From assembly GCF_027052235.1 (NCBI RefSeq), contig NZ_JALUFF010000081.1, positions 5,136 through 69,135 on the forward strand: a stretch of DNA of 64,000 nucleotides, given 5' to 3'. The DNA is from Thermococcus sp. GTDB taxonomy: Archaea; Methanobacteriota_B; Thermococci; Thermococcales; Thermococcaceae. The notes beneath the pieces were generated by a model. It was given only the letters and a program-made list of their open reading frames with translations. It made no database searches and was not told the DNA's origin. Positions 7,940 through 25,876 of the stretch are shown here, one piece after another. Position 1 is the stretch's first letter. The number at the start of each line of letters is the position of its first letter. Both the position numbers and the translations under genes were made by a program.

Positions 7940-7970
7940 AAAGAAAACAAATCACACAATTTATTTTACC

Positions 7971-7986: not shown

Positions 7987-8011
7987 CTCTCTCAGTCCTA
8001 ATCCCGGAAGC

Positions 8012-8089: not shown

Positions 8090-8099
8090 AACTTCTCCT

Positions 8100-8177: not shown

Positions 8178-8182
8178 GAAAA

Positions 8183-8472: not shown

Positions 8473-8480
8473 ACAGAACC

Positions 8481-8981: not shown

Positions 8982-9021
8982 CGACCCGGATTGGGTGAGA
9001 AGCTTAAAAGCTTATTCGGTG

Positions 9022-9519
9022 TCAGTGGTTGTAGTAGCCTTCAACGGCCCACTGGGCGACGGACGTTGAGAAAAGGGCCGATATCAGGAGGAGTATAACC
9101 GCCAAAGCCGACAGCCAGAGCTCAAGGCCCTCAACCCTCCTGAGAACCAGAATCCCGAGGAGAGATGAAAGCGTCCACGTGAGGAGGAAGGCTATGATGA
9201 ACCACTCGGGCCTTCCTGAGCCGAGGCCGAGAATACTGGCCCCCATCAGGGAACCAAGGACACCAGCGGTGAAGTAGGTGTATCCAAGTGCCCTCCCCCT
9301 GCCGGTCTTCTCGGGAACCGTGAGGTAGAAAAGGCTCGCTATCCCAAGGAGGAAGTAAATGACGACCAGATAGGGCCCCGTCCAGTCGAGTCTCTTGTAG
9401 AAGGGTCTTGGGATGAAGGAATCGGCTATTATGAAGCCCGGAAAGCCCATCCCAAACATGTTGAAGAGGGCCTGAAAGATGAAAATTCCTGCTAGAATCT
9501 TGTCCCTCACAGGCATCAC
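9022..9519 (-). CDS. Hypothetical membrane protein (about 5 TM)
   Basis: Hydrophobic ORF co-oriented with its neighbours. Confidence 0.7.
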   Translation of the reverse strand: MMPVRDKILAGIFIFQALFNMFGMGFPGFIIADSFIPRPFYKRLDWTGPYLVVIYFLLGIASLFYLTVPEKTGRGRALGYTYFTAGVLGSLMGASILGLGSGRPEWFIIAFLLTWTLSSLLGILVLRRVEGLELWLSALAVILLLISALFSTSVAQWAVEGYYNH

Positions 9520-9539
9520 GGTGCCAGATAACGGAATCC

Positions 9540-10061
9540 CTAAATATAGCTTTCGCCATCGTTGATCAACCTCACGAGGCCGTCCATGTCGGTCTCCTTG
9601 AGCTCCTTCTCGAACTCGATGCCGAGTTCAGCTATTTCCTCCGGCGTTATCGTCGTTTCTGGTCCTTCGGCGTTTATCCCCGGACAGCTCTCGTCGTAGT
9701 AGAGCCACAGTGTTTGGCCTTTGTACTCAAAGGGCCTCTCGCCCTCGATGCCGAGCGGTTTCCGCGAGACCATGAAGGGATAAATCCTGCATATGAGTGG
9801 CCTCACCGAGTGAATCCTGCACTTCCCTGTTTCCGGGTCGTGAAAGACGCAACCGAGATCCCATTCTCGTATTGACATAACGAAGCGGATTTTGTCACCT
9901 TCGACCGAGAACGTAACGAAGTCCTGGGGGTCATGACCCTTCCGCGCGATTCTCTCAATATCCCTTAATGTCAGGTAGACGTGCCTCCCGCGGCAGCAGT
10001 CGAGGCAGAAAAGGCACCTAAATCCTACTGGCTTCGTGAACGGCCTTGGTCTGAAGCGCAT
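9540..10061 (-). CDS. YkgJ-family Fe-S/Zn cysteine-cluster protein
   Basis: CLFCLDCC...CVFH...CRIHSVRPLICRIYPF. Confidence 0.88.
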   Translation of the reverse strand: MRFRPRPFTKPVGFRCLFCLDCCRGRHVYLTLRDIERIARKGHDPQDFVTFSVEGDKIRFVMSIREWDLGCVFHDPETGKCRIHSVRPLICRIYPFMVSRKPLGIEGERPFEYKGQTLWLYYDESCPGINAEGPETTITPEEIAELGIEFEKELKETDMDGLVRLINDGESYI

Positions 10062-10176
10062 AGTCCAAAATCGGAGGGGACACTTATAAATCTGCCGAAA
10101 TTTTAGTTACTTCTACACAGAAAACTTTTTAAAGATGTTAAAATTACCTTAGGTAAAAATAAGGAGGTGAACAAAG

Positions 10177-10743
10177 ATGCCTTACGGGGAAGTTGGAAAG
10201 AACTGGGTATGGATGCTGGGTCTAGGAATAATATTCACAACCCTGGGCTTTGCCGGCCTGATGATACTGCCCCTCCTCACAATAACAAGCGTGGCAATAT
10301 TCGGAGCGTTTATGCTCGTTGCCGGTACACTTCAGTTCCTCCAGGGACTTACGAAGGCAAGAGAATGGAAGAGCAGAACCCTGCACGTCCTGATGGGGGC
10401 CATCTATGTCCTAGCGGGTATCGCCACAATGGAGAACCCACTCCTTGCCACAGCGGTCCTAACCCTCATCCTAGGGGTGTCCTTAATAGTTATTGGGGCA
10501 CTGAGGATTGCAGTGGCATTTCAGAACACCAACATTAACCAGTGGATGCTCGTGAGCATCTCTGGAGTCATAACGATGCTCTTGGGTGTGCTTATAGTCC
10601 TCCAGTGGCCCTGGTCAAGCCTCTGGGCGGTTGGGCTCTTCGTGTCCGTTGACCTGATAATGAGCGGGCTTAACTTCATTGCGATAGCTTTAAGTGCAAA
10701 AACGGAGTACACCAAAGAACAGAGAAATCCATCCGGGGGGTGA
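10177..10743 (+). CDS. HdeD/DUF308 family membrane protein
   Basis: KNWVWMLGLGII...WPWSSLWAVGLFVSVDLIMSG; RBS GGAGGTGA. Confidence 0.85.
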   Translation: MPYGEVGKNWVWMLGLGIIFTTLGFAGLMILPLLTITSVAIFGAFMLVAGTLQFLQGLTKAREWKSRTLHVLMGAIYVLAGIATMENPLLATAVLTLILGVSLIVIGALRIAVAFQNTNINQWMLVSISGVITMLLGVLIVLQWPWSSLWAVGLFVSVDLIMSGLNFIAIALSAKTEYTKEQRNPSGG

Positions 10744-10749
10744 AGCCCA

Positions 10750-11523
10750 CTGATAGCCCTCGTTTCCCTTATTTTGGTTATAACGCTCTCAATGATCATC
10801 GTCAGAATAGGGGCGATAGCCCTTGAAATGACCGGCCTATCCAAGGACGTCGCCTCGTTTCAGGCACAGTCGGCTTTCTCGGGTACGGGCTTCACGACGA
10901 GCGAGAGTGAATACGTCGTCTCTCACCCTGTCAGGAGGAAGATAATCAGGATTCTAATATTTCTGGGGAGCGCGGGGATTACTTCTGCCGTAGCCACACT
11001 CGTTCTGACCTTCGCCGGCAGGAGCAGGAACGAGGCTATCACCTCAATATTAATCCTCAGCCTGAGCCTGCTCATCCTTTACCTCATCTTTACATCCAAG
11101 AGGATTGAACGCTGGATGAGGAGATGGATAAAGCGCTTTTTAGCTAAAGCTTTCCCCCAGCTTAGGGTTTACGACTACAGCCAGCTCCTCGGCATAACGA
11201 GAGGATATTCCATATCCCAGATAAAGGTCAGAAAAAGGAGCTGGCTCGCAAACAAGAGTCTAAGGGAGCTTGAACTCGACAAAGAAGGGATCCTTGTGCT
11301 TGGGATATACCGCAAGACAGAGAAAGGTGAGGTTTACCTTGGCGCGCCAAAAGGGGACACTGTCATACTTCCCGGAGACATTCTTGTATGCTACGGGCCA
11401 GAAGAAGCCCTATTAAGGCTCTCCCAGAGGGTTAAAGGGAGAAAGGGTGACCTGGAGCACGAAGAGGCTGTCAAGAAAGCGGAATTAAGAAAGACAGAGG
11501 AGGAAATGATGGCAACGGCTTAA
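10750..11523 (+). CDS. Membrane protein with C-terminal TrkA-C (RCK_C) domain; probable CTG start
   Basis: FQAQSAFSGTGFTTSESE motif, RCK_C region LVLGIYR...GDILVCYG; frame open to CTG 10750, which follows RBS GGGGTGA. Confidence 0.8.
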   Translation: MIALVSLILVITLSMIIVRIGAIALEMTGLSKDVASFQAQSAFSGTGFTTSESEYVVSHPVRRKIIRILIFLGSAGITSAVATLVLTFAGRSRNEAITSILILSLSLLILYLIFTSKRIERWMRRWIKRFLAKAFPQLRVYDYSQLLGITRGYSISQIKVRKRSWLANKSLRELELDKEGILVLGIYRKTEKGEVYLGAPKGDTVILPGDILVCYGPEEALLRLSQRVKGRKGDLEHEEAVKKAELRKTEEEMMATA

Positions 11524-13289
11524 GTGTTCAGATGCGCATCGAACTCCCCGCTCTTTTTGTAGTCCGCGTAACTTTTATCGAGCCTTTTCGCGACGTAGGG
11601 GCCGTTCTTTCTGTAGCCGAACTTGCGGTAGTACTCTCTAACTCCAACTCCACTTATTACGAGCATTTTCTTGACCTCGAACTCTTCGCGAGCTATCCTC
11701 TCGGCCTCGCTCAAGAGCTCCCTGCCGTAACCGCGGTGCTGCCACTCATACCTCGGTTTCCCGCCTATTGGCACGAGCGGGCCGTAAACATGGAGCTCCC
11801 TGACTATGGCTGAAGGACAGCAGTTTATCTCCTTCCTGTGGGCTTTCTCGCTCGGAATCCTCAGACGGAGAAAGCCAATGAGGACGTCGTTTTTCACGTC
11901 TTCAAAGCTGAGGAAGATTTCCCTCCCGCCAGCCGCATCGTAGTCCTCGCGGAGGAGCTCTATGTGCTCCACCTCGGGCTCAACTCCAAACTTCTGCATC
12001 TGGTGGCCGACTTCTCTAAACCGTATCTCCCTTGGCCTTATACCGCGTTTAATCAGCTCGTTGAAGACGAGCTGGCCGAGGTTCGAGTGCTTAACTCCAG
12101 CGACTATGAGCTTCGCAGGGATGTCGCGCTGGATTCTCATCACTCTGACCCATTTGGGAAAATACTTGTAGGCCTCGACGAGAAGCTCAACGGCTTCCTC
12201 GGTAGTGTAGGGCCTGTACTTTCCGGCCTTGTACCACGCGTAAAGGGGTGCATCAGCAGTCACAAGCGTCGGGTAAATCTTGAGCATGTCAGGCCTGAAG
12301 CGGGAATCCTCGAATATCGTCCTGAAGGTGTAGAGATCTCTCTCGAAGTTGCTCCCGGGCAAACCGGGCATTATGTGGTAGTTGATTTTAAGACCAGCGT
12401 CCCTCAAAAGCTGGGTGGCCTTAACTATCTCCTCAACTCCGTGGCCCCTCTTCGTTCTCTCGTGGATGAAGTTGAAAATCGTCTGGACGCCCAGCTCCAC
12501 CCTCGTGGTTCCAAAGCGGAGCATCCTGTCTATCTGCCTCTCAAAGGCCCAGTCTGGCCTTGTTTCTATAGTTAAACCGACCATCCTGACTCTGGCTTTC
12601 TCGTTCTTCCTCTGCTCGTCCTCAAGGTAGTAGTATGGCTTCCTGTGGGTTCTCCCCCATGCTTCCCTGAACTTGGGGTCTTCCTGCAAAACGGAGGTAT
12701 CTCCCTTGACTATCAGCCTGACGAGCTTGTCCTCAAGGTTCTCTATGTCCCTGAAGTACGGGAAGTCGTTCATCGCCTTGAAAGCGCACTTGACGTACCA
12801 CTCCTGGTAATCGAGGTCAACGGCTGGAAACGTTCCCCCCTGGATTATCACCTCGACCTTGTCGACGTCGTGGCCTATGTCGGTGAGCTGTTTAAGGCGA
12901 CGCATCATGATGATGTAAGGATGATAGGCGCTCTGAACGGCCCTTAAAGCTGAAGGTTCTTTCCCGGTGTAGCTCTGGGGAGAACCGACGCTCGGCCCGC
13001 CGGGGCAGTAGATGCAGCGCCCGTGAGGGCAGGGGAACGGCTTTGTCATCATCGCAACTACCGCGACTCCGCTTATGGTTCTGGTAGGTTTTCTCTTTAG
13101 GAGATCCCTAAAGCGCTCGCGCTCCTCCTCTGGAATGGCCTTCAGTATGTCGGAGTTACCTGGAATCTTCGACAGGTGATACTTCCTAGAAACGACTATC
13201 TTGTAGCGGTTGAGCTCCTCTCTGCTCTTTATCTCGCCAGCTAAAACGGCTCTCGCTATCTCCTCGACCGCCTTCTCAAACTCGCCCAT
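11520..13289 (-). CDS. elp3: tRNA U34 modifying radical SAM/GNAT enzyme Elp3
   Basis: CPHGRCIYCPGG, GLTIETRPD, RELHVYG, WQHRGYG acetyl-CoA motif. Confidence 0.96.
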   Translation of the reverse strand: MGEFEKAVEEIARAVLAGEIKSREELNRYKIVVSRKYHLSKIPGNSDILKAIPEEERERFRDLLKRKPTRTISGVAVVAMMTKPFPCPHGRCIYCPGGPSVGSPQSYTGKEPSALRAVQSAYHPYIIMMRRLKQLTDIGHDVDKVEVIIQGGTFPAVDLDYQEWYVKCAFKAMNDFPYFRDIENLEDKLVRLIVKGDTSVLQEDPKFREAWGRTHRKPYYYLEDEQRKNEKARVRMVGLTIETRPDWAFERQIDRMLRFGTTRVELGVQTIFNFIHERTKRGHGVEEIVKATQLLRDAGLKINYHIMPGLPGSNFERDLYTFRTIFEDSRFRPDMLKIYPTLVTADAPLYAWYKAGKYRPYTTEEAVELLVEAYKYFPKWVRVMRIQRDIPAKLIVAGVKHSNLGQLVFNELIKRGIRPREIRFREVGHQMQKFGVEPEVEHIELLREDYDAAGGREIFLSFEDVKNDVLIGFLRLRIPSEKAHRKEINCCPSAIVRELHVYGPLVPIGGKPRYEWQHRGYGRELLSEAERIAREEFEVKKMLVISGVGVREYYRKFGYRKNGPYVAKRLDKSYADYKKSGEFDAHLNT

Positions 13290-13387: not shown

Positions 13388-14791
13388 ATGCGCTTCGTGG
13401 ACAGGGAGCGGGAGATTGAATTGCTGGAGAAAGCCCGAGAACGCTCCCGAAAAAAGCTGTACACTGTGGCGATCTACGGTCTTAGGAGAGTCGGAAAAAC
13501 GAGACTTCTGCGCGAGTTTTTAAGGAAGGGAGACCTCTACTTCTTCGTCAACAGGGGGAAAAGCTCCCCCTCCCTTTTGAGAGAATATTCTGAGATACTA
13601 AAAGAGAAGGGAGTGCTCGGGAAGAGGGAGGAACTGAAGGGTTGGAATGACTTCTTTGAAGTCCTGTTCGAGCGCTTCGAGGGAACAATTGCCTTCGACG
13701 AGTTTCAGGACTTCCGTTTCGTCGAACCGGCCGTTTATCCAACCCTTCAGCGTTTCATAGATGAAAACGAGAACAGAAAAAACCTTCTGATGGTATTTAC
13801 AGGTTCAACGGTTGGAATGATGGAGAAGCTGTTCAAGGACTCAAAGGAGCCGCTCTATGGAAGGATAAAAAGGGAGCTCCACCTTGAACCCCTCGACATC
13901 GGGGGGAGCTACGAGATGGCAAAAGAACTTCGGATTGAGAACATCGATGATTTCATAGTTCTACATTCAGTCTTTGGAGGCTTTCCCCGGTACTGGGTGG
14001 CGATTGAAGACGAGGGGCTAGAGGGCGAGAACGCGGAAAGAATTCTTGAGGAGCTTATATTTTCGTATTCAGCTCCCCTCGAAGAGGAAGTTCCAAGAAT
14101 ACTCTCACTGGAGTTCGGGAAGCGCTCCGGGCTTTATTACGATATCCTTGAAGCCATAGCCAACGGGGCAACTTCGCCGGCCAAGATAGCGGGCTATTTA
14201 AACAGAAAAGAGACATCAATAACGAGGCAACTCCACGAGCTCGTGAACTACTTCAAGCTGGTTGACTACGACAGAGCACTCCTCGGAAAGGGGAGCATTC
14301 TTTACATCAAGCACCCGTTCCTGAACTTCTGGTTCAGGTTCATCCACCCGAGGCTGAGCGAGTATGAACTAAAGAGGGAAAAGCTGTGGGAGGACGTCAA
14401 GAGAAACCTTTCCGACTACGTTGGAAAAAGGTTCGACTTCACCTGCCGTGAACTCCTAAGGCTCGCCGAGGATCAGATTCCTTTTAAGCCTGTGGTCGTG
14501 GGGAGGCACTGGGGCCACTACCGCGAGAGTGGGAGGAGAAGAGTTTATGAGATTGACATCGTAGCCCTTGACGCCGAAAGAAAACGAGCACTCTTCGGGG
14601 AGTGCAAATGGAGAAAGCGGGCGCAGGACGGGGAGAAGCTCCTTAAAGAACTAAAGGAGAAGGTGGAATTAACGGGCTGGAAGGGTGAAGTTCACTACCT
14701 CATCATCGCGAGAAAGCTCAAGAACATACCGGAAAACGTTATAGTCCTCGATGAAGAGAAAATCAAAAACCTGCTGGAGGGTGGAAGATGA
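13388..14791 (+). CDS. Archaeal ATPase with wHTH and C-terminal DUF234-type PD-(D/E)XK domain
   Basis: FVDREREI, GLRRVGKT Walker A, FDEFQ Walker B, EIDIVA...GECKW. Confidence 0.9.
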   Translation: MRFVDREREIELLEKARERSRKKLYTVAIYGLRRVGKTRLLREFLRKGDLYFFVNRGKSSPSLLREYSEILKEKGVLGKREELKGWNDFFEVLFERFEGTIAFDEFQDFRFVEPAVYPTLQRFIDENENRKNLLMVFTGSTVGMMEKLFKDSKEPLYGRIKRELHLEPLDIGGSYEMAKELRIENIDDFIVLHSVFGGFPRYWVAIEDEGLEGENAERILEELIFSYSAPLEEEVPRILSLEFGKRSGLYYDILEAIANGATSPAKIAGYLNRKETSITRQLHELVNYFKLVDYDRALLGKGSILYIKHPFLNFWFRFIHPRLSEYELKREKLWEDVKRNLSDYVGKRFDFTCRELLRLAEDQIPFKPVVVGRHWGHYRESGRRRVYEIDIVALDAERKRALFGECKWRKRAQDGEKLLKELKEKVELTGWKGEVHYLIIARKLKNIPENVIVLDEEKIKNLLEGGR

Positions 14792-15540
14792 ACCGCGACG
14801 AACTCGTTGCCTTCCTCGACGATTACCTCCAGGTTTCGGCCTACTCTGACAAGTCCAGCAACGGCCTCCAGATCGAAGGAAAGGAAGAAGTCGAGCGCGT
14901 TGCATTTGCCGTTGATACAACGCTGAGAACAATCGGAATGGCCGCTAAAGGGAAGACCGACATGCTGGTTGTGCACCACGGCATGATATGGGGCGGGTTG
15001 AACTACGTAACGGGGATACACTACAAGCGCTTAAAGGCCCTTTTCGAGAACGGGATAAACCTCTACGTTGCCCACCTCCCACTGGATGCCCACCCAGAGG
15101 TCGGGAACAACGTTGGACTTTTGAGGCTCCTCGACCTTGAGCCAAAGGGCCCCTTCGGAGAGTACAAGGGCCTCTCCATAGGCTTCTGGGGGGAGTTTAA
15201 GGAGGCACAGCCAATCGAGAAGGTGGCCCAGATAATAGCGGAGAAGCTCGATACGACCGTTAAGACCTACGAGTTCGGGAAGCGCGAGATTAAAACCGTT
15301 GGAGCGGTCAGTGGGGCCGGGGCGTTCGCACTTGAAGAGGCGTGGAGGAAGGGGATTGACCTGCTCATAACCGGTGAGTTTGGCCACGCGGATTATCTGA
15401 CGGCGATCGACCTTCCCCAGAGCGTCCTCGTTGCGGGCCACTACAAGACTGAGACGCTGGGCGTTAAGGCCCTCATGGAGCTTTTGAAGGAGCGCTTTGG
15501 GCTTGACGTGTTCTTCATAGACGAGCCGACAGGGCTTTGA
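14788..15540 (+). CDS. Nif3-like dinuclear metal-centre protein
   Basis: NGLQIEG, VVHHG, HLPLDAHPEVGNN, GHYKTE. Confidence 0.93.
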   Translation: MNRDELVAFLDDYLQVSAYSDKSSNGLQIEGKEEVERVAFAVDTTLRTIGMAAKGKTDMLVVHHGMIWGGLNYVTGIHYKRLKALFENGINLYVAHLPLDAHPEVGNNVGLLRLLDLEPKGPFGEYKGLSIGFWGEFKEAQPIEKVAQIIAEKLDTTVKTYEFGKREIKTVGAVSGAGAFALEEAWRKGIDLLITGEFGHADYLTAIDLPQSVLVAGHYKTETLGVKALMELLKERFGLDVFFIDEPTGL

Positions 15541-15880
15541 GCTCCCCCATAACTTCTTTTTCTTTCAAAATCCTCAACACCATTCCAATTTCGTCGGCGT
15601 AGTCCATAATCCAGCCCGGCTTTGAGTTGAGGTTGGAAACTACCCAGAGCTCGGAAAAGCCGGCTCGGTGAGCCTTGACAACGTCGTAGAGAAGCCTCTG
15701 AGGAAACCACTTGAAAGATGCCTCCAGCTCGATGGCGAGGAGCTTCTCTCCATCCTTAAGAATCGCAACGTCTATCCTCGTGCCGTCTCCTGTCCTGTAC
15801 TCGGGAACGGCCTTCAGGCCAAGTTGCTCTGAGAGCGCGATGATTTCCCGCGTTAGGGTTTTGACCTTGATTTTGGACAC
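15515..15880 (-). CDS. Hypothetical protein with a PD-(D/E)XK-like motif
   Basis: PEY...RIDVAI...AIELE spacing; RBS-like AGGTG and GTG start. Confidence 0.6.
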   Translation of the reverse strand: MSKIKVKTLTREIIALSEQLGLKAVPEYRTGDGTRIDVAILKDGEKLLAIELEASFKWFPQRLLYDVVKAHRAGFSELWVVSNLNSKPGWIMDYADEIGMVLRILKEKEVMGELKALSARL

Positions 15881-15910
15881 CTAATAAAAAAGGAGAGTTG
15901 GGGTTAAAAA

Positions 15911-16837
15911 CTACTCGACGAGTTTCAGGAATATTTCCTCTAGGCTTGGCTCTTTGACCTGCATGGTGAGTATTTTCGCCCCCTGCAAAGCCACGAGATC
16001 ATGCAACTCCTCCCTAACATCCTCAGGAGCAACGACACGATATTTGTTCTCACCAAGGGGAGTCACGTTCCATTTAGCGGAACTCCAATCTACGGGCCTG
16101 TTTGTCTCAATGATTATTGTGTAACCCGCTTTCCTCAGGAACTCGCGCTTAATGTTCTCAATGCTGTCCTCTAATCGGAGTTTGCCTCTGACAATCACTC
16201 CAACAGTATCGCAGACCTCTTCCACGTGAGCCAGAATGTGGCTTGAGAAGAAGACAGTTTTGCCGGCCTTTCTCTGCTCCCTAATAATCTCCTTGAACTC
16301 TGCAATGCCCTTGGGGTCAAGACCGCTCATCGGCTCGTCGAGGATCAAAAGCTCGGGGTCATTGATCAAGGCCTGAGCGAGGAGGAGCCTCTGTCTCATT
16401 CCCTTCGAGAACTTGCCCACCTTCTTGTTCCTTACATCCTTGAGACCGACGAGGTCAAGGAGCTCGTTAATCCTCCTCCCCCTCTCGGCCTTCGGGATTT
16501 TAAACGCATCAGCGATTATATCCAGCGTTTGAGCTGGCGTTAGGAAATCCCAAAGAGTGGCGTTCTCGGGCATGTAACCAATTCTGGCCTTAACCTTGAC
16601 TAGTTTAGCCTCGTTAAACTCCCCGTCCCTGAAGACCTCCTCGCCGAAAAGCTCTATTCTCCCCTCCTGAGGAAAGATGAGGCCAAGGGTGCTGAGAATC
16701 GTCGTGCTCTTGCCTGCACCGTTTGGGCCGAGGAAACCGTAAACCTGACCCGACTTAACCTCAAGATTCAATCCATCCAAGGCCCTAACGTCCTTGTAAA
16801 CCTTAACGAGGTTCTCAATCCTGAGCATCACCATCAC
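15911..16837 (-). CDS. ABC exporter ATP-binding subunit
   Basis: GPNGAGKST, FSKGMRQR, LILDEP, SSH. Confidence 0.95.
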   Translation of the reverse strand: MMVMLRIENLVKVYKDVRALDGLNLEVKSGQVYGFLGPNGAGKSTTILSTLGLIFPQEGRIELFGEEVFRDGEFNEAKLVKVKARIGYMPENATLWDFLTPAQTLDIIADAFKIPKAERGRRINELLDLVGLKDVRNKKVGKFSKGMRQRLLLAQALINDPELLILDEPMSGLDPKGIAEFKEIIREQRKAGKTVFFSSHILAHVEEVCDTVGVIVRGKLRLEDSIENIKREFLRKAGYTIIIETNRPVDWSSAKWNVTPLGENKYRVVAPEDVREELHDLVALQGAKILTMQVKEPSLEEIFLKLVE

Positions 16838-17754
16838 CTCAAGTCCATCCTCCTGAACCTGATGAGGGCCAGCACGAGGTAAACGGGGATAAGACCCGCT
16901 ATAACTCCAGTTTGAGCTGGATTCTGTGAGAGGGCATGCTTAACCCCAAGGTATTCGACGGTATACGTGCCGTCGGGGCTGAACTTCGTCGTTTCCACGT
17001 CTTTGATAACGTCCAGCATGAGCACCTGCGGGACGTAGAAGAGGTACTTCAGGTGATACTCCCTGTAAAGCTCGTCGAGGCGCTCCTGATAGGCCGTTCT
17101 CTGCTCGGGGGAGAGCTTCGCGAAGTCTCCCCTCTCGTGGAGCCCGAACTCCTTATCGACCCTGTCCTCCGCCCATCTATCAACGATCTGAGGGGCCACA
17201 AGACCCGTGAGGAAAAATATAACAAGAGCCAGCCCCAAAGCGGTGTTGGAGGAGCGGACGAAGGTCGAAATGAGTAAACCCAGCGCTAAAAGCTGGAGCA
17301 TGGCCAGGAGAACCAAACCGTTGGCCAGCGTAAGGTCCGAGACGAGTTTTCCGCTGAGGGAGAGGCCGTAATGCTCTGTTATGGCAAAGGAGAGAAGAGT
17401 TGCGAAGACCATCGCAACCACTATGCTGACGCTCTGGCCAAGGAACTTGCCGAGCAGGTAGGAAACCCTACCAAGGGGCTTGCTTAAGGCCACCCTGATG
17501 GTTCCGTTTTCAAGGTCGGAGTTAATCCCCGTCGCTCCAGCCATGAGGGCGTATACTCCTATGAAGAGGAACGCACTGACGGCTATGTAGCCGATTAGGC
17601 TCGTCAGGAGGACTCCCTGGGGATCAGAGGCCCCTTCGAGGTTGTCCTTTACCTCCCTGAAGGCCATTGCGTAGATCAGCAAAATCAAAACCAGTATCAG
17701 CCAGAACTTCTTCGTTCGAAGGCCTTTCTTCATCTCAAGCTCAAACCCCCACAT
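16834..17754 (-). CDS. ABC-2 type permease
   Basis: ENGTIRVALSKPLGR...GKF, C-terminal FRRMDLR. Confidence 0.9.
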   Translation of the reverse strand: MWGFELEMKKGLRTKKFWLILVLILLIYAMAFREVKDNLEGASDPQGVLLTSLIGYIAVSAFLFIGVYALMAGATGINSDLENGTIRVALSKPLGRVSYLLGKFLGQSVSIVVAMVFATLLSFAITEHYGLSLSGKLVSDLTLANGLVLLAMLQLLALGLLISTFVRSSNTALGLALVIFFLTGLVAPQIVDRWAEDRVDKEFGLHERGDFAKLSPEQRTAYQERLDELYREYHLKYLFYVPQVLMLDVIKDVETTKFSPDGTYTVEYLGVKHALSQNPAQTGVIAGLIPVYLVLALIRFRRMDLR

Positions 17755-17758
17755 GCTA

Positions 17759-19276
17759 TCACCTCAGGTCTGCTCTCCTAAACCTTAGCCACGTAATGGT
17801 CAAGTAAGCAAACGTTGGAATGATCAGCATGCCCAGGTTACTTTCATGGTTTAAAATCTTATCTATCCCAGCAGGAGGAAGATTGCGCTTCTGAGAGAGC
17901 GCAGAGCTAAGGGCAACGTACTGAACCGAGGGAGCTGGGACGTACAGTGCCCTCCGGGCGAGCTCTCCCGAGTGCCCAAACGTAGTTACAAAGGCTATTG
18001 GGACTACAAAGCCCAGCAAGAAGGCGAGAACCAGCGAGAGGAGAAGTGCCTTTCTCCCCCTCATGAAGGCCGAGAGAAGGTAGCCGAGGGCCAGATACTG
18101 GAGGAGCGAGAGGAAAAGGAGGGAACCAAAGGCAAGGCCGAGTTCGAGGGTTCTACCTAAGGGAGCACCTAAGTGCAGGGCGTAGGCAACGATAAGGGCC
18201 GCGTAGAAAGCAGTTCCAATGAAGACCGCGAGGGTATCGCTGAGGAGCGTTCCCAGGAAAAAGTCTCTCCTCTTCATCGGCTTGCTCAGGAGAACCCTGA
18301 CGGTGCCGTTCTCAATTGCCGAGCCGATCGAGAGCGCCCCGAAGGGCAGAACCACGAAGGGCAAGAAAACGCCGTTCAGGGCCGAGATTACGGCATTCAA
18401 AAGGCCCGGAATACCGAAATCTGAGTGGTAATCCCCGAGCATGGTAAAGTTAAAGAATGCTGTCATGGTGGTCAGAGCGAGGAAAGCAATGAAGCGCCTG
18501 CTCTGAAGGCTCAGCCCGAGGAAAACGCCGTAAAGCCCGCGGGGGGAGAAGGAAAAACCAGGGACAGCAATAGACTCAGGACCCCTCAACTCCCTCCTCC
18601 GGAAGGCTTCCATCCCGACGAGCGACAGAAGAACGAAAACAGCCAAAAGTTGTCCAACGGCCTTATGGGAGACAGAAACGCTCTCGCCGATTGAAACAGC
18701 CCTCTCAAGGTAAACCGTCGGAATGAACGAGTAATCGGATTTTCCGAGGAGAAGGAGAACAACGAACGCCCCAAGCCCGAGGAAGACCCCGGAATCTCGG
18801 GAAGTAGCGAGGGGGATTAGGAGCAGGGCGATTCCAACAACGCCGACCAGCGAGAGCGAAAGGGCAAGGGAGCCTACGAGATAGTCTTTAACTTCGAAGC
18901 TGTGGGCTAGCATTGCAAGCGCTCCCGAGAGTGCAATCCCTAGGGTGAAAATTAGAGCAAGCTTTAACCCCTCGAAGGCCCAGCTTAGGAAATAGCGCCT
19001 CCTCGTGAGGGGCTTTGAGACCATCAAGATGACGCTCCCCCTCTCGAAGTCCGAGCCGAAGCGCGGGAGGAGAATTATTAACAGGACTGGTATGAAGAGG
19101 AACTTGATGAAATTCGGAAGCCATTTGACGAGCAAGTCGGCGGTTATCAGGTGACCGAGCACTTCGGAGGATATGTTGGGATAGTGAGTGGTAAATCTGG
19201 AAACGTCTATCTCGACCGCTATGGCCGGGAAGAGGAACATTACAAAGATTGTAGAGGAGTTTACTTGTTTTTTCAC
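17759..19276 (-). CDS. Tandem (two-domain) ABC-2 type permease
   Basis: Two copies of the E.G.....SKP..R motif and of the F.R.(D/E)LR ending; RBS GGAGGGTG before GTG 19276. Confidence 0.85.
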   Translation of the reverse strand: MKKQVNSSTIFVMFLFPAIAVEIDVSRFTTHYPNISSEVLGHLITADLLVKWLPNFIKFLFIPVLLIILLPRFGSDFERGSVILMVSKPLTRRRYFLSWAFEGLKLALIFTLGIALSGALAMLAHSFEVKDYLVGSLALSLSLVGVVGIALLLIPLATSRDSGVFLGLGAFVVLLLLGKSDYSFIPTVYLERAVSIGESVSVSHKAVGQLLAVFVLLSLVGMEAFRRRELRGPESIAVPGFSFSPRGLYGVFLGLSLQSRRFIAFLALTTMTAFFNFTMLGDYHSDFGIPGLLNAVISALNGVFLPFVVLPFGALSIGSAIENGTVRVLLSKPMKRRDFFLGTLLSDTLAVFIGTAFYAALIVAYALHLGAPLGRTLELGLAFGSLLFLSLLQYLALGYLLSAFMRGRKALLLSLVLAFLLGFVVPIAFVTTFGHSGELARRALYVPAPSVQYVALSSALSQKRNLPPAGIDKILNHESNLGMLIIPTFAYLTITWLRFRRADLR

Positions 19277-19327
19277 AGTACCACCCTCCGAGAGCTAGCT
19301 AATAATTTAAATAATAAACCTGCTCCA

Positions 19328-19348
19328 CAAAGAAATAATAAAAAAGCG
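19328..19348 (-). terminator. Oligo-T terminator after the precursor peptide genes
   Basis: Minus strand CGCTTTTTTATTATTTCTTTG begins 7 nt after the TGA of precursor B. Confidence 0.55.
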
Positions 19349-19354
19349 AGTGTG

Positions 19355-19534
19355 TCAAATATCAATCACTTGGCAATCAGGATCTCCTCCCCAGTCCCAG
19401 AAGCATCCGGTGTCTGTCATCTCACAGCCTTCTCCAAATGCACACTCAATGTAGCAGTTGTCACTGTTGCAGTTGTCACTAGTTATGCATAGAGGTTCAA
19501 TTGGATTGATATTCTTGGTTAACTTCTTGAACAT
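19355..19534 (-). CDS. Cys-rich RiPP precursor B, 59 aa: MFKKLTKNINPIEPLCITSDNCNSDNCYIECAFGEGCEMTDTGCFWDWGGDPDCQVIDI
   Basis: Translated by hand (below the ORF-track cutoff); RBS GGAGGTGA 6 nt before ATG; 7 Cys; leader shared with precursor A; downstream of an rSAM/SPASM gene. Confidence 0.9.
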   Translation of the reverse strand: MFKKLTKNINPIEPLCITSDNCNSDNCYIECAFGEGCEMTDTGCFWDWGGDPDCQVIDI

Positions 19535-19548
19535 TTTCTTTCACCTCC

Positions 19549-19689
19549 TTATACATCTATAATTGTACACGGGCTTTCTGAGGTGCAAATATCTATCAAC
19601 AGACAACTTAGGTCTCTAGAACCACAGTCAATATCAACAAAGCACTGTGGCTCCACCGGGTTGCCACCTGCGTTCAACTTCTTAAACAC
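19549..19689 (-). CDS. Cys-rich RiPP precursor A, 46 aa: MFKKLNAGGNPVEPQCFVDIDCGSRDLSCLLIDICTSESPCTIIDV
   Basis: Translated by hand; RBS GGAGGTGA 6 nt before GTG; 8-nt overlap with the 3' end of the rSAM gene; 5 Cys. Confidence 0.9.
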   Translation of the reverse strand: MFKKLNAGGNPVEPQCFVDIDCGSRDLSCLLIDICTSESPCTIIDV

Positions 19690-21133
19690 CTGCTATCACC
19701 TCCTTTGGTTTTTGGGTTTTGGCCTCATCGGACTCCTCGGCCCTCACCCCTCCCAGGGGTGAGCGTGAGAAGACCTTATTCAACCAGTCTTCGTCAAGAT
19801 TCGAGTAAAGCCAGGAACCCCACCTCACGAGAGCAAACATATAGGAGCAGTGGAACTCGTCGGGGAGAAACACGTCACCGTTGTAGTAGTGGTTGTTGTA
19901 TATACAGCCACCGCCGCAGTAAGCCCTTATCGGGCAGCTCGAACACTTTGGTCTCTTGTCCACAGTATGGTGAAGGATCTTCTGAATGAACTCGTTCTCC
20001 CACCTGAAATCATCAACGTGACCAACCACAAATTTTTCCATTCCAACGAACCTGTGGCAGGGATACATCTTCCCGTCCGCCGAAACCCCGAAGTAGCTCC
20101 TGGCAACACCACAGGGATAATGGCGGTAGGTGCCGGAGTAAATCATGTGAACCATCTCACGGAGCTTTGTGTAAACGATTCCTTTCTCCTTGTAGTGTTC
20201 AAGCTCGTCCTTCGCTATCTTTTCGAGGGCAGATTCAACGAGTTTAGCATGCTTCTCAGTCAGTGGTGTACTTGTGGTAGCTGGCTCAAGATGAACGCTC
20301 CTGAAACCAAAATCAACGAAGAATCTGTAAATCTCATAGTATCTATCAAGCTGCTCTGGCAGAACCGTTGCGCGGATGCTAACCTTAACGCCACGCTCAA
20401 GCATCTTCTCTGCATTCCTCGCTACAACATCAAAGGTTGGATATCCCCCACGTAGAGGTCTGTTGTTATTTTGAATGTCTCTAGGGCCATCAAAGCTTAG
20501 AGTCACCGTGAAGTTGTTCTCAAGGAAAAAGTCAATGACCTTCTCTGTGACGAGATAACCGTTGGTTGTTATGCTGAAGGTAACAACTTTATCGTGTTCT
20601 TTAGCCTTCTCTTTTGCATATTGAACCAGCTCCCGAATCAGCGGAAAGTTCAACAAAGGTTCGCCACCAAAGAACTGAATGTTAACGACCTTCTTCCCCT
20701 CTCTCATTAGCAGGTCAATGGCCTTTTTAGCAACTTCTGGACTCATTCTAGTATTGGGAGTGTGGTAAGTACCGCCATCACCATAACAGTAAACACAAGC
20801 AAAGTTGCAGTCTTCCATGACGTTAAGGGAAATGGACGAAATCTTGGATTTTATGATTCCGAGATATGGCTTTACGGGTGGCTTAGATTCATAGAATACG
20901 CGACGGAGATCTTCATCAGATTTAATCTCCTTTATCAAAGAATCCCAGTCAGATGTAGAGTATTCCTTTACAAAACGATCCTTGCCATCACCCCAGCCCA
21001 ACTCTGCCACAAACCTGCAGAAGTCATAGGTTTTCTTATCGACCTCAAATAGGGTTCCTGTAGGTGAATGCAGAACAAAGTACTTGCCACCAACGTGGAA
21101 GGTGTGCAATTCCGGTCTCACGTCACCAGACAT
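19682..21133 (-). CDS. Radical SAM/SPASM peptide maturase with N-terminal RRE-like domain (ranthipeptide-synthase type)
   Basis: CNFACVYC, FFGGEPLL, SITTNG, SPASM CG...YPCHRF...CSSCPIRAYCGGGC...C; N-terminal LHTFHVGGKYFVLHSPTGTLFEVD resembles a PqqD/RRE domain. Confidence 0.92.
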   Translation of the reverse strand: MSGDVRPELHTFHVGGKYFVLHSPTGTLFEVDKKTYDFCRFVAELGWGDGKDRFVKEYSTSDWDSLIKEIKSDEDLRRVFYESKPPVKPYLGIIKSKISSISLNVMEDCNFACVYCYGDGGTYHTPNTRMSPEVAKKAIDLLMREGKKVVNIQFFGGEPLLNFPLIRELVQYAKEKAKEHDKVVTFSITTNGYLVTEKVIDFFLENNFTVTLSFDGPRDIQNNNRPLRGGYPTFDVVARNAEKMLERGVKVSIRATVLPEQLDRYYEIYRFFVDFGFRSVHLEPATTSTPLTEKHAKLVESALEKIAKDELEHYKEKGIVYTKLREMVHMIYSGTYRHYPCGVARSYFGVSADGKMYPCHRFVGMEKFVVGHVDDFRWENEFIQKILHHTVDKRPKCSSCPIRAYCGGGCIYNNHYYNGDVFLPDEFHCSYMFALVRWGSWLYSNLDEDWLNKVFSRSPLGGVRAEESDEAKTQKPKEVIAGV

Positions 21134-21143
21134 TGTACTCTAA

Positions 21144-21188
21144 CACCTCCGAAAAAAAAAACTGTAGTTAATGTTTATAAGATTTTCT
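21144..21188 (-). promoter_or_regulatory. Own promoter and RBS of the rSAM gene, containing a T10 tract
   Basis: Minus strand AGAAAATC-TTATAAAC (21173-21188), T10 (21152-21161), GGAGGTG (21144-21150). Confidence 0.6.
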
Positions 21189-21212
21189 ATTCATTTGTAA
21201 AACAATAGAGTA

Positions 21213-22211
21213 TTAAAGTTTTTCTACTCTATCAAAACGACCAAAAATAATCAAAAACACATCCCCAAGTGATAGTTCTTCAACTCTAATCTGCATGGCA
21301 CCCTTTGAGGATAAAACCCTCACGAACTCATCCACCTCATTGATTTTAAGATAGGCCGTGACATGAGTGTAGTTCCCTTTGGTAAGACACCGAGCCATAT
21401 GCCATCTGTTGCATTCAACTTTTCCCTTCACAATCGCACTGACCTTTTTATCAACTGGAACCCTGAGCTTCCTGCTTATCTCCTCAGGCTTTCCCTCAAG
21501 GATGGGCCTCTTGTTGAAGAGTAGAACCCTGTCACTCAGCTTCTCTGCCTCCTGAAGGTCGTGGGTGGTGAGGATAACAGTCGTTCCAAAGTCCTGAACG
21601 AGGGTCATTATTGCGTCATGTATCTCGCTCTTGGTTATCACATCGAGAAAAACCGTCGGCTCGTCGAGTATGAGGTACTTCGGCCTGACCACTAGTGCGG
21701 AGGCGATGTAAACCTTCTGCTTCATTCCGGCCGAGAGCTTCTGGTACCATTCGTTCCTCTTCTCCCACAGGTTCAGCAGTTTGAGGGCGTACTCTATGCG
21801 TTCCCCCATCTCAGCCTCGGGAACCTTCCACAGCCTCGCGATGAACTGAAGGTTCCTGTAAACGCTCAGGCGCCACTGGAATACCCCCCACATGTCCCTC
21901 TCGCCAGTGAAAACCGTGAACATCTCCCTCGCAACTTTGCCGTGCTCCCTAAAGCTGTCGTGGCCGTCGATGAGCAGTTTTCCAGAACTCGGCTCAAGCA
22001 GGCCGTTGGCGATTTTACAGAGGGTCGTCTTTCCCGCACCGTTGGGACCGAGGAGGCCGAATATCTCCCCCTCCCTCACCTGAAAGCTAAGATTCACGAG
22101 GGCCGGAATCTCCTCCCTGGGTCTTCCGAGAAAATCACGGAGACTGTCCAGATCGAAGAAGCCCCCAAAAGGAGGTGGATAGTACTTGGTCAGGTTAACT
22201 GCCTCAATCAT
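21213..22211 (-). CDS. ABC exporter ATP-binding subunit
   Basis: GPNGAGKTT, LSAGMKQK, LILDEP, LTTH. Confidence 0.95.
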   Translation of the reverse strand: MIEAVNLTKYYPPPFGGFFDLDSLRDFLGRPREEIPALVNLSFQVREGEIFGLLGPNGAGKTTLCKIANGLLEPSSGKLLIDGHDSFREHGKVAREMFTVFTGERDMWGVFQWRLSVYRNLQFIARLWKVPEAEMGERIEYALKLLNLWEKRNEWYQKLSAGMKQKVYIASALVVRPKYLILDEPTVFLDVITKSEIHDAIMTLVQDFGTTVILTTHDLQEAEKLSDRVLLFNKRPILEGKPEEISRKLRVPVDKKVSAIVKGKVECNRWHMARCLTKGNYTHVTAYLKINEVDEFVRVLSSKGAMQIRVEELSLGDVFLIIFGRFDRVEKL

Positions 22212-22220
22212 CCAACCACC

Positions 22221-23018
22221 TCACACGTGACCCAATGTGCCAAGCTGCATCGCCTTTCTAACGCCCCACCTAAACGTGGCGATTCCTACTAAAAACATAA
22301 TACCGGTAGTTAGGATAAGGTTCACAAAACTCGGCCAGATTTGAGACACTGAATAGCCCCCGCCCATCGTCAGCCTGGCCATCTCAAGAATGTACCTCTC
22401 GGGGTGTATCTTGGAAATAGGCTGGAGCCACCAGGGGAGCGCGTCGGGCGGGAAGTAAAGACCGCTCACGAGCTGGGAGGTGAGGTTGAGGAACCAGTTT
22501 ACAGGATCCTGCCTCGCTTTAGTGGCAGTCCGAAAGCCCGCCGAAAAAAGTTCGAGGGCAAATGTGAGGGTGAAGCCAGCAAGGATAACTAGCAGGGCAC
22601 CGAGGTTGAGGTGAATAACTAAGCCGTAGAAGAGAACGAAGACTACCGTTATTAGGCCCATTATCATAAGGCTCCAGACGACATTCCAGGCATTTATTCC
22701 TACAAAGACCGCTACCATTCCAGCGGGGGAGGCATATAGCATCGGAAAGCTCCTCCCAATCAGGAGCTTGGAAAGGCTACCGCGCGGAAGGAATATTATG
22801 TTGTGCACGATGAAGCCTATCAGAAAGAACTGAAGGAAAGAGTTAGTTCCGTACTGCTCGATGTTCGCGTTTATGGTCACCAAACTGGCGAATATTCCCA
22901 TGACTGCAACCTGGATTAGAAGGCCTATCAGGTAGCTTACCACGTCCCAGCGGTAGCTGAAAAAGACCTCTCTCTGAACATTGAAGAACTCCCGGACTAT
23001 TTTAACACCGTCCCTCAT
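22221..23018 (-). CDS. ABC-2 type permease
   Basis: About 6 TM; SGLYFPPDALPWWLQPISKIHP motif. Confidence 0.88.
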   Translation of the reverse strand: MRDGVKIVREFFNVQREVFFSYRWDVVSYLIGLLIQVAVMGIFASLVTINANIEQYGTNSFLQFFLIGFIVHNIIFLPRGSLSKLLIGRSFPMLYASPAGMVAVFVGINAWNVVWSLMIMGLITVVFVLFYGLVIHLNLGALLVILAGFTLTFALELFSAGFRTATKARQDPVNWFLNLTSQLVSGLYFPPDALPWWLQPISKIHPERYILEMARLTMGGGYSVSQIWPSFVNLILTTGIMFLVGIATFRWGVRKAMQLGTLGHV

Positions 23019-23122
23019 TCCAACCAGTCAACGTTAGAATAGAGAATTTAAAAGAATATCGCATATCTACCTCGCTCTATTGGTGGGCAAGGCTTTCAGA
23101 AAAAATGTAAATTCGCAGGCAA

Positions 23123-25876
23123 TCAGCCGAGCCTCTTCTTCACCTCTTCAATGGCTTCCTCAGCTTTCAGCGGGTTCTTTATCCTTCCCTGGGCAAGCTC
23201 TTTCCTTCCGCCGCCACCGCCGCCTGCAACGGAGGTTATTACTCTAGCGAGCTCTCCCGCTTTGAGGTCAAGGCCATCGCCAACTGCAACGACGAAGTGG
23301 CCCTCTCTGGTGATGAGAACTACCACGCGCTTATCTTTCCTGAGCTTGTTTGCAGCTTCACGGAGGTCATCTATTGTTCTCCCGACCACCTTGCCGATGA
23401 ACTCTATTTCGCCAACCCTCTCGACTTCATTCTCAAGCTCATAGACGAGGAGCTTCGCCAGCTCTTTCCTCAGCTTCTCGGCTTCTTTCTTGGCCTGCTT
23501 CCACTCGTTAAAGAACCTCTCCGCCGTCTCCGGAACTTTCTCCGGGGGAACGCGGAATATCTCGGCGGTCTTCTTGAGTATTCTCTCGGTCTCCTGCATC
23601 CAGTTTACGGCAGCTTCTCCAGCGGCAAAGATAATCCTCTCCACGCCATCCTGTATGCGCTCCGTCCTCAGAATCTTTATCGGCCCGATAAGGCCGGTGT
23701 TGGGCAGATGCGTTCCACCACAGGCCTGAACGTCCCAGTCCTCTATCCTGAGAACCCTGATAACCCTTCCGGGGACGACTCCACCCTGATATAAGCGGAA
23801 GCCGTACTTCTGCTCCGCCTCCGTCCTCGGGAGCCACTCCCAAGTGACCTTCCTGTTCTCCATCACAACTCTGTTGGAAAGGCGCTCTATCTCCCTCAGC
23901 TCCTCCTCGGTTATGCGCTTGTAGTGGGATATATCTAGGCGGGCCCAGTCGGTGTGGAGCTGTGAACCGGCCTGCCAGACGTGTTTTCCGAGAACCCTGA
24001 CGAGTGCGCCCATAAGGACGTGGGTTCCGGTGTGGTGACGCATGTGCTGGATTCTCCTGTCCCAGTTGAGCCTTCCGTGAACCTTAGTCCCTTCCTTGAA
24101 GAGCTCCGGTCTCTCGACTTTGTGCAGGATGACCTTTCCGACCTTCTGGACGTTTGTGACCTTGACTTCCTCACCGTTGACAACCAGAACACCGGTGTCG
24201 TAGGGCTGGCCTCCACCTTCCGGATAGAAGGCCGTCTTATCCAACACGACCCAATCATCGATTACCCTGAGGACATTAGCATCGAACTCCTTCATGAAAG
24301 GGTCCTCGTAGTAGAGCGTCCTCGTGTCGGGTAAATCCTTGACTAGTTCGAAGTCCACCACATATTCTCCTGCCGTCTTTTTCTCGGTCTTCTCGGCCTG
24401 CTTGGCGACGAGAGTGTAGAAGTTGTCGGGTATGTGAACCTTGATTCCCTCCTTCTGAGCAACCTCAGCCACTATCTCAGGGGTTAAGCCGTGGCTCTCG
24501 TAGAATAGAATGAGCTTCTCCAGCGGGAGCTCGTTAATTCCCCTCTTCTTGAGCTTCGCTATCTCGCGCTTCACAAGGTCGCTTCCCCTCTTCAGCGTAT
24601 CCTGGTAGCGCTTCTCCTCGACGTTGATTATGTCAAGGATTACATCCTCCATCTCCTTGAACTCGGGGAACGTTGGCGAGAGCTCCTTTATGTGCATCGC
24701 AACTATCTCGCTCAGCGGAATCTCAAGGCCGAGCTCTCTAAGATGTCTTATGCTCTTCCTTATGAGGAGCCTTGCGAGATAACCCGCTTTGACGTTTGAG
24801 GGGATCACCCCATCAGCGAGCATAAAGGTTAAAGCTTTGGTATGGTCCGCTATGGCGTAGATGAGCTCGTAGGGCCTCACAGCTTTCTCAAGCTCCTCGA
24901 CGCTTATGCCAACGCGCTTTGCCACCTGCTCCCTCAGATAGCGCAAATCCCCCATGTCCTCGATGTCAAACATCCCAGCTAATCTGGAGTTCTCCATCAG
25001 GATTCTCCCGTCTATCTTCTCCACACCGGCCATCTTCTTGAGGGGTTCAATGACGTAGCCTAAGACAGCGTCGTAAGCCGTTGGAGTGCCATGGCTCATC
25101 CATACTAAACGCTCAAGACCGTAGCCGGTGTCGACGACCTTTGTCTCCATCGGAACGTACTTTTCACCCTTTATCTCAACCACCTGGCTCGGGTCGGCGT
25201 TTTCTGGGGCCTTCTTGTACTGCATGAAGACGAGCGTAGCCACCTCAAGACCGCGGTAGAGCACCTCGAAAGCCGGACCAGCGTTTCCTCCGCCGGCCCA
25301 CGGGTTTTCCTTGAAGGTTATGTCCTCTGCCTTCATTTTGAGCTCCTTGGTGAAGAACTCAAAAGCTAATTCAACAGTCTCGTCCATCCAGTATATCGGC
25401 TTGCCCGGGTAGTTGAAGGCATGATGCGCCATCATCTCGAATATCGTGAAGTGCCTGCCGGTTATTCCGACGTTGTCTATATCCGTAAACCTTATCGAGG
25501 GCTGGCTTATGGTGAGCGGGTTTGCAGGTGGGTCTGCTTCACCGCTTATGACCCAGGGCTGGAAGTCCATTATGCTGGCTCCAACGAGTAAAACATCGTC
25601 CCTCCATCTCGGCAGAACCGGGTAGCGCTTAACCCTACCATGACCGTGCTTCTCGAAGAAGCTCAGGAACTTTTCACGCATCTCATCTAGGGTGTACTTC
25701 TTCGGTATCCCGGGCTTTCCTATGAACTGATACTCGTCACAGGGCGGGTCTCCACAGGTCTCTCTCTCGGGATCGAGCGTCCAGAAGTACTTGCCACACT
25801 TCGGACAGCGCTTCCTAATCCATCCCTCTTCCCTAAACATCCTGGTAGTCATGTCCATGCTCATGAGAACCACCAC
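23123..25876 (-). CDS. alaS: Alanine--tRNA ligase
   Basis: [36 protein letters not shown] editing site, GGGGG C-Ala motif. Confidence 0.98.

Follow-up and report, generated by a model that had tools for sequence, protein, structure and literature searches.

A 64-kb stretch of Thermococcus DNA (the window, meaning the whole stretch that was analysed) carries an island of eight genes which very probably encodes a ranthipeptide system of the PapB/freyrasin type, producing two peptides with multiple Cys-to-Asp/Glu thioether bridges. The eight open reading frames (ORFs), called from the DNA and assigned to families with Pfam and NCBIfam, all lie on the minus strand between 15911 and 23018. A first-pass annotation of the window had described eight minus-strand genes in a host from the Thermococcales and had proposed a ranthipeptide-like cluster for a RiPP, a peptide made by the ribosome and modified after translation. 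All eight genes are present where it placed them and the families are confirmed by Pfam and NCBIfam. The host genome groups with Thermococcus, and the closest homologues of the maturase, which are 86-90% identical, come from T. celericrescens and other Thermococcus. The proposal of a ranthipeptide-like cluster is supported, and the type can be narrowed down: the system is freyrasin/PapB-like rather than SCIFF-like or QhpD-like. The features of the island are given below in the order of transcription; related genomes and loci are referred to by G-numbers and L-numbers, respectively.

15883-23122, minus strand: the complete insertion, which spans 7,240 bp and separates orf121 from alaS, delimited by blastn against the empty site of G091 (L033).
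22221-23018, minus strand: ATP-binding cassette (ABC) type 2 (ABC-2) permease of 265 residues, belonging to the upstream transporter (PF01061, E 6.9e-6, slightly under the gathering score).
21213-22211, minus strand: ABC ATPase of 332 residues, partner of the 265-residue permease (PF00005, E 4e-29; DrrA-like TIGR01188, 199 bits).
21134-21212, minus strand: AT-rich spacer 5' of the maturase gene, in which inspection of the sequence shows TTATAAA (TATA-like), GGAGGTG and a T10 run.
19682-21133, minus strand: PapB-like maturase of 483 residues, combining a RiPP recognition element (RRE), a radical S-adenosylmethionine (SAM) domain and a SPASM domain (Pfam Radical_SAM, Fer4_12, SPASM).
19696-19703, minus strand: Shine-Dalgarno (SD) sequence GGAGGTGA of precursor A, within the final codons of the maturase gene.
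19549-19689, minus strand: precursor A, 46 residues, GTG start, 15-residue leader MFKKLNAGGNPVEPQ followed by a core that contains five Cys-X2-3-Asp/Glu motifs.
19541-19548, minus strand: SD sequence GGAGGTGA of precursor B.
19355-19534, minus strand: precursor B, 59 residues, leader MFKKLTKNINPIEPL followed by a core that contains seven Cys-X2-3-Asp/Glu motifs.
19277-19354, minus strand: T-rich/AT-rich spacer 3' of precursor B, TTTTTTATTATTTCTTT ... TTTATTATTTAAATTATT, read directly from the sequence.
17759-19276, minus strand: membrane protein of 505 residues with two ABC-2-like halves, belonging to the downstream transporter (PF12679, E 2.9e-19, residues 286-504).
16834-17754, minus strand: ABC-2 permease of 306 residues (PF12679, ABC2_membrane_2, E 2e-55).
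15911-16837, minus strand: DrrA/GldA-like ABC ATPase of 308 residues with a DrrA C-terminal domain (PF00005, E 8e-31; PF13732, E 4e-7).

The two small ORFs that follow the maturase gene share a leader of 15 residues, MFKKL…NP[V/I]EP, and in both the first Cys stands at position 16. Each Cys has an acidic residue, Asp or Glu, at +3 or +4 (5/5 in precursor A and 7/7 in precursor B). The earlier description of two Cys/acid precursor peptides, each with a perfect ribosome-binding site 6 nt upstream, is therefore borne out: GGAGGTGA is found exactly 6 nt ahead of the start codon in both, the acid is present after all 12 Cys, and the peptides belong to a conserved family. When 13 non-redundant archaeal precursors are pooled, 77 of the 81 core Cys have Asp or Glu at +2 to +4, compared to a mean of 38.7 in within-core shuffles; none of 5000 shuffles reaches the observed count, although this significance is inflated by the relatedness of the pooled sequences to one another. 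The first acid after Cys in the pooled set is at +3 for 39 Cys and at +4 for 29. Leader codons vary synonymously at conserved residues, with six synonymous differences between the two leaders of the window, a pattern that suggests selection on the peptide. Precursor A and most homologues begin MFKKLN, with Asn at position 6 as in PapA (MLKQIN); precursor B has Thr at position 6 and Asn at 8 and 10. In systems of the PapB type, a conserved leader Asn has been proposed as a contact of the RRE. The cores have an isoelectric point (pI) of about 4 and no net positive charge. Precursor B, whose identity to G026's third precursor is 64%, is listed in public collections as ‘hypothetical protein [Thermococcus sp.]’, while the exact sequence of precursor A is absent from the public collections searched.

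Both precursors end C-x-x-I-D-[V/I] (19355-19372 and 19549-19566), and in most precursors of related loci the last Asp likewise lies at the C-terminus or within ~3 residues of it. There is a report that PapB joins Cys to a C-terminal residue bearing a carboxylate (PMC12373016), and for this reason the final ring of the precursors may, by analogy, involve the peptide terminus.

The maturase was described in the first-pass annotation as an RRE-rSAM-SPASM enzyme of 483 residues, an assignment that agrees with its Pfam domains (Radical_SAM, Fer4_12 and SPASM), its alignment to CteB and its predicted fold. The highest-scoring NCBIfam family is PapB (NF047865), followed by a nif11-type radical SAM family, QhpD and the SCIFF maturase; all of these scores are below the respective cut-offs, and identity to PapB is only ~31-32%. 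Among solved structures the best match by sequence is CteB (5WGG/5WHY), with an E-value of 4e-59 over maturase residues 9-441. An AlphaFold2 model built from 42 homologues has a mean pLDDT (predicted local distance difference test score) of 89.2, and a Foldseek search with this model returns CteB at template-modelling (TM) scores of 0.78-0.89 across ~450 columns, RRE included. In the model, three strands (9-31) and then three helices (33-81) precede the radical SAM barrel, and this predicted N-terminus has the arrangement of an RRE. A Pfam search of the N-terminal 98 residues and of both precursors, with E-values up to 10, gave no matches, so the RRE assignment rests on the CteB alignment together with the predicted fold.

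The catalytic residues are strongly conserved. The cysteines of the radical SAM CX3CX2C motif (C109, C113 and C116) are invariant in the alignment, as are seven cysteines of the SPASM domain (C341, C359, C397, C400, C406, C410 and C429). R361 of the maturase aligns with R372 of PapB, in a column that is Arg in 38 of the 42 aligned homologues. Arg372 of PapB is reported to be essential for cross-linking, which is abolished by its mutation, and it has been proposed to contact the acceptor carboxylate (PMC9413430).

Three other family memberships were tried and rejected. The QhpD model TIGR03906 gives 273.3 bits against a cut-off of 453, and the only neighbours are ABC transporter and small peptide genes. 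The SCIFF maturase model TIGR03974 gives 247.3 bits against 425, and the precursors match no NCBIfam or Pfam family. For sactisynthases, RumMC (NF035951) scores 88.7 bits against 720 and SkfB is a weak fold match, at a TM score of 0.46.

The GTG start of precursor A overlaps the stop codon of the maturase gene (GTGTTTAA), and precursor A is thus translationally coupled to that gene. The octamer GGAGGTGA occurs 9 times in the 64-kb window compared to 2.8 copies expected, and none of 100 shuffles reaches 9. The spacer at 21134-21212 is a putative archaeal promoter plus SD for the maturase gene, and the spacer at 19277-19354 may contain an oligo-T terminator and an internal promoter. A scan for sigma-70 promoters and intrinsic terminators gave counts at or below the shuffle expectation, but it used bacterial models, which are uninformative for an archaeon.

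From the genes and their counterparts we infer a pathway of thioether formation and export. The two precursor genes would be translated from strong SD sites, with that of precursor A coupled to the maturase gene. The shared 15-residue leader would dock on the N-terminal RRE of the maturase (about residues 9-81), and the enzyme would cleave SAM reductively at the [4Fe-4S] cluster held by C109/C113/C116. The resulting 5'-deoxyadenosyl radical would take a hydrogen from the beta-carbon of Asp (or the gamma-carbon of Glu), while the carboxylate is held by Arg361. The thiolate of a Cys 2-3 residues upstream, bound at an auxiliary SPASM cluster, would then make the thioether. The predicted products carry small in-line rings one after another; peptide A would have five and peptide B seven, each lowering the mass by 2.016 Da. 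The calculated monoisotopic mass would fall from 4958.334 to 4948.256 Da for precursor A (-10.078 Da) and from 6610.799 to 6596.689 Da for precursor B (-14.110 Da). These very acidic, stapled peptides would leave the cell via the flanking ABC-2 transporters, and the leader would be removed, if it is removed, by an unlinked protease.

Among 97 species genomes of Thermococcaceae, 9 encode a maturase at least 68% identical to that of the window and 10 encode a paralogue. The eight-gene order recurs in G036 (T. indicus), G026 (T. celericrescens), G022 and G018, at a chromosomal site which is common to those four and differs from that of the window. In the same four genomes the 265-residue permease is 93-95% identical and syntenic. 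The 332-residue ATPase is syntenic in all orthologous loci. The 306-residue permease is syntenic as well, and the 505-residue permease is 69-77% identical and syntenic in orthologous loci. A metagenomic relative with a 68%-identical maturase has the same layout but carries a single-length version, of 295 residues, of the 505-residue permease.

Small ORFs lie 3' of the orthologous maturases in G036, G026, G022, G018, G083 and G097; the same holds for the maturase of the metagenome relative (68% identical) and for a more distant maturase in G131. The first-pass annotation had named maturase homologues without adjacent Cys-rich ORFs as a finding that would speak against it; a member of the precursor family stands beside the orthologous maturase in every orthologous locus examined. 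There are 1-3 precursors per locus. Those in orthologous loci start MF[KR][KR]L and continue into wholly different Cys/Asp-rich cores, and the leader of precursor A is conserved in the first precursor of each. The cores are otherwise not alignable: when T. indicus and T. celericrescens are compared by blastn, the whole locus aligns apart from the precursor region.

A copy of ~100 nt from the 3' end of the maturase gene, SD included, precedes an extra precursor gene in two genomes: G026 (L022, 6500-6607) and G022 (L023, 9926-10033). It thus seems that precursor cassettes were duplicated, or imported, along with the maturase tail. The G026 precursor behind the copy is a homologue (64%) of precursor B of the window.

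More distant relatives have precursors of their own. A paralogous Thermococcus maturase family, at 37-42% identity, is represented at 5009-6615 of L025 (G036:C1) and at 5158-7092 of L026 (G023:C16). The G036 paralogue is coupled to an ORF of 50 residues that contains four CX3[D/E] motifs, and permeases of the BPD_transp type come next, while the G023 paralogue is accompanied by four tandem peptides of ~32-53 residues with two Cys each and the leader (R)ALV[KR][IV][RQ]P. An assembly from outside the window's phylum, GCA_015665585.1 (L029), encodes a 38%-identical maturase and a precursor of 53 residues, MHMKKLNGSSSGVEPLC... (2495-2656). The leader of this precursor is similar and its motifs of the form Cys-X2-3-Asp number six; it lies upstream of an ABC ATPase gene, with a Cas6 I-A gene nearby. 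In a profile search of genome contigs with an alignment of the archaeal clade, the matches listed were all bacterial homologues, SCIFF-like or PapB-like and 27-37% identical, without a named Thermococcus locus among them. The genome of the window also has at least one further SPASM-type radical SAM gene (G000:C62:66545-67537), 26% identical to the maturase (E 3.6e-21).

Homology of the window to G091 (L033), the closest of the genomes with an empty site, ends at 15882 and resumes at 23123, so the eight genes form a 7,240-bp insertion replacing a spacer of ~22-24 nt. Many Thermococcus genomes have the order NIF3-like gene, orf121, alaS, with about 22-24 nt to a few dozen bases between orf121 and alaS. 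The corresponding window positions (14788-15880 and 23123-25876), with the NIF3-like gene, the ORF of 121 residues and alaS, are a conserved Thermococcus neighbourhood. The site is empty in G022 and has only a ~430-nt gap in G018. G+C content is 0.43-0.47 in the maturase and precursor genes, 0.51-0.55 in the transporter genes and about 0.52 in the flanks. Despite this lower G+C of the maturase and precursor genes, a cassette that begins and ends within the flanking ABC genes is not supported, since both limits of the insertion fall outside the eight genes.

In G008 the alaS/orf121 site holds permeases of 410, 517 and 306 residues plus an ATPase, without a maturase or precursors (L062, G008:C1:426000-440600, 7301-11932). 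At another site the same genome has decayed fragments of the 265-residue permease and the maturase (L063, 5597-6132). The transporter-only state of G008 is a possible ‘orphan immunity’ genotype. A decaying transporter is also present in G020 (L064, G020:C53, 1760-3266). ABC-2 or RiPP cassettes appear to have landed repeatedly in the alaS/orf121 spacer.

The transporters fit the first-pass annotation in part. Its ‘two ABC exporters’ are two ABC systems by family, while their role in export is our extrapolation, and the downstream system exists in G008 in the company of no maturase. Its ‘double permease’, the 505-residue protein, does contain an internal repeat, although a weak one: the halves share only a GSxxExGxVxxxxSKPxxRRxxFL motif (E 2e-5), and ABC2_membrane_2 is matched only in the second half, at residues 286-504. 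The 308-residue ATPase scores 226 bits with TIGR01188 and 186 bits with the lantibiotic-protection ATPase family TIGR03740 in NCBIfam.

Several points weigh against a PapB/freyrasin-type system. The maturase scores 288.9 bits with the curated PapB equivalog, under the cut-off of 340, while PapB of P. polymyxa itself scores 473.6. In a quick FastTree phylogeny, midpoint-rooted and with supports not inspected, the Thermococcus maturases fall in a clade separate from Paenibacillus PapB; its members are the Thermococcus orthologues, the 37-42% identical Thermococcus paralogues and the group represented by the assembly from outside the phylum. In the archaeal precursors CX2[D/E] and CX3[D/E] occur about equally often, and ring size or connectivity may, to judge from this pattern, differ from freyrasin. 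The inflated significance of the pooled motif belongs here too, as does the lack of a leader peptidase among the island genes. Finally, G008 has the downstream ABC-2 transporter at the same site with neither maturase nor precursors, so that the link of this transporter to the peptides is a presumptive one.

An alternative is that the maturase installs a different cross-link, such as a sactionine (Cys sulphur to alpha-carbon) or another radical modification, with the regular Asp/Glu serving solubility or metal binding. The scores below every curated equivalog cut-off leave room for this, similar SPASM maturases catalyse varied chemistry, and CteB, the closest solved structure, was first deposited as a ‘sactipeptide’ enzyme. 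It is nevertheless decidedly improbable: PapB is the top family, whereas RumMC reaches only 88.7 bits against a cut-off of 720; the carboxylate-binding Arg of PapB is conserved; and an acid at +2 to +4 of 77/81 Cys in otherwise hypervariable cores would be difficult to account for if the acid did not belong to the reaction motif. Far less credible still is the proposal that the enzyme matures a protein in the manner of QhpD, or that the small ORFs are chance ORFs, in either case not substrates. TIGR03906 does give 273 bits, but this is under the cut-off of 453 and quinohemoprotein amine dehydrogenase genes are absent from the island; moreover, the small ORFs are conserved, preceded by SD sequences and built of leader and core in every orthologous locus examined. 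The conservation data effectively refute this explanation.

The extent of the system can also be drawn more narrowly, as the 265-residue permease, the 332-residue ATPase, the maturase and the precursors only, with the 505/306/308-residue transporter an unrelated efflux system that happens to be adjacent. G008, which has this transporter and the 410-residue permease at the alaS/orf121 site but neither maturase nor precursor, would be explained in this way, and so would the difference in G+C content (0.51-0.55 against 0.43-0.47 in the maturase and precursor genes). However, the transporter accompanies the maturase in four species, at a second chromosomal site, and again in the metagenome cluster (68% identical); it lies within the 7,240-bp insertion, and an analogous ABC-2 set belongs to the freyrasin cluster. 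The decayed permease and maturase fragments in G008 fit a lineage that stopped producing but kept a protective pump. On balance the narrower system is rather unlikely.

An antagonism/immunity locus would be expected to show what is seen for the island: cores that are hypervariable, more than one precursor at many loci, a patchy distribution, decay and a genotype with the transporter alone. We tentatively propose that the products are the first archaeal ranthipeptide ‘archaeocins’, acidic and heat-stable peptides that carry multiple staples and a core particular to each species, and that vent Thermococcus would use them when strains compete with one another. Immunity would then come from the downstream ABC-2 pump, kept as an orphan by some strains (G008) once production was lost, and the maturase would be a naturally thermostable Cys-Asp/Glu stapling enzyme, leader-guided and tolerant of sequence. 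It is also possible, if doubtful, that the peptides act in signalling of a quorum-sensing kind or in metal handling. A passage in PMC13635244 cites reports of SCIFF-type ranthipeptides in clostridial quorum sensing. The archaeal cores are very acidic (pI about 4), unlike many membrane-active bacteriocins. We know of no report of antimicrobial activity for freyrasin, which also favours such a role. Against it stand the species-specific hypervariable cores behind a conserved leader, typical of diversifying antagonism loci, the 1-3 precursors per locus, the patchy distribution (9/97 genomes), and the gain, loss and decay of the island together with the transporter-only genotype. Variable cores, patchiness and decay are typical under diversifying selection, and none of them is a functional test. 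Inter-strain antagonism, with the downstream ABC-2 transporter giving self-protection, is rated slightly above a signalling role.

The first-pass annotation knew of no characterised example in Thermococcales, and our literature search agrees: it found no paper combining Thermococcus and ranthipeptide, and no structurally or functionally characterised archaeal ranthipeptide. Subtilosin-like clusters, in T. celer and T. nautili, are the subject of the sole paper on radical SAM peptides of Thermococcales that it turned up. Nevertheless, archaeal ranthipeptide clusters have already been predicted by bulk genome mining, their products being uncharacterised (PMC12144867, PMC13635244), and the novelty is accordingly narrower than had been implied, since this kind of system is already known. 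According to a review, only two haloarchaeal lanthipeptides have been validated (PMC12144867). What the locus offers is a concrete, well-delimited archaeal candidate, with two substrates, explicit mass predictions and a genus that includes a genetically tractable laboratory species. PapB is in use as a promiscuous catalyst of peptide macrocyclisation (PMC9413430, PMC12373016), and a hyperthermophile homologue that handles many cores could be a sturdier enzyme of this type. The gain, loss and transporter-only genotypes provide a testable model of peptide-mediated competition among hyperthermophilic archaea.

Of the known systems, several make thioethers with related enzymes. CteB/CteA of Clostridium thermocellum, which makes the SCIFF thermocellin, resembles the island system in being a thioether-forming SPASM enzyme from a thermophile and is the closest in structure. 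In thermocellin the acceptor is Thr, whereas the Thermococcus acceptor motif is Asp/Glu. QhpD, an RRE-containing SPASM enzyme, also makes Cys-Asp (S-C-beta) and Cys-Glu (S-C-gamma) thioethers (PMC13692751), and it is the third-best NCBIfam family for the maturase; its substrate, QhpC, is however a protein subunit of an enzyme complex, and the island is without dehydrogenase genes. Within the archaea, CrpC protein thioethers were described in methanogens in 2026 (PMC13692751). This too is a radical SAM thioether system in Euryarchaeota, but it modifies a protein rather than a leader-bearing peptide. The subtilosin-like sactipeptide clusters of T. celer and T. nautili combine a radical SAM enzyme of the AlbA type and ABC partners with an sboA homologue that has three Cys and Phe/Tyr acceptors, and horizontal transfer from Caldicellulosiruptor has been proposed (bioRxiv 10.64898/2026.07.27.741052). 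They differ from the freyrasin-like island in both enzyme family and precursor.

The closest likeness is to PapA/PapB of Paenibacillus polymyxa. In CX3D/E motifs PapB joins the Cys sulphur to the beta-carbon of Asp (the gamma-carbon of Glu), and it also works with spacings of n = 0-6 (PMC9413430). The Thermococcus maturase shares with it the RRE-rSAM-SPASM architecture, the best NCBIfam score and the carboxylate-binding Arg (R372 in PapB, R361 in Thermococcus). The precursors resemble PapA in their short leader (MLKQINVIAGVKEPV in PapA; pattern M-[LF]-K-[QK]-[IL]-N ... [VK]-EP) and in a core of repeated Cys-Xn-Asp/Glu. The freyrasin cluster likewise has an ABC-2 three-gene set, a second ABC exporter and no dedicated leader peptidase; its second transporter is a fused ABC_membrane exporter, while that of Thermococcus is of the ABC-2 type. 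In contrast to papA, which lies upstream of papB, the archaeal precursor genes are downstream of the maturase gene and coupled to it. Finally, the Thermococcus host is a hyperthermophilic archaeon, and it carries two precursors, elsewhere 1-3, with species-specific cores.

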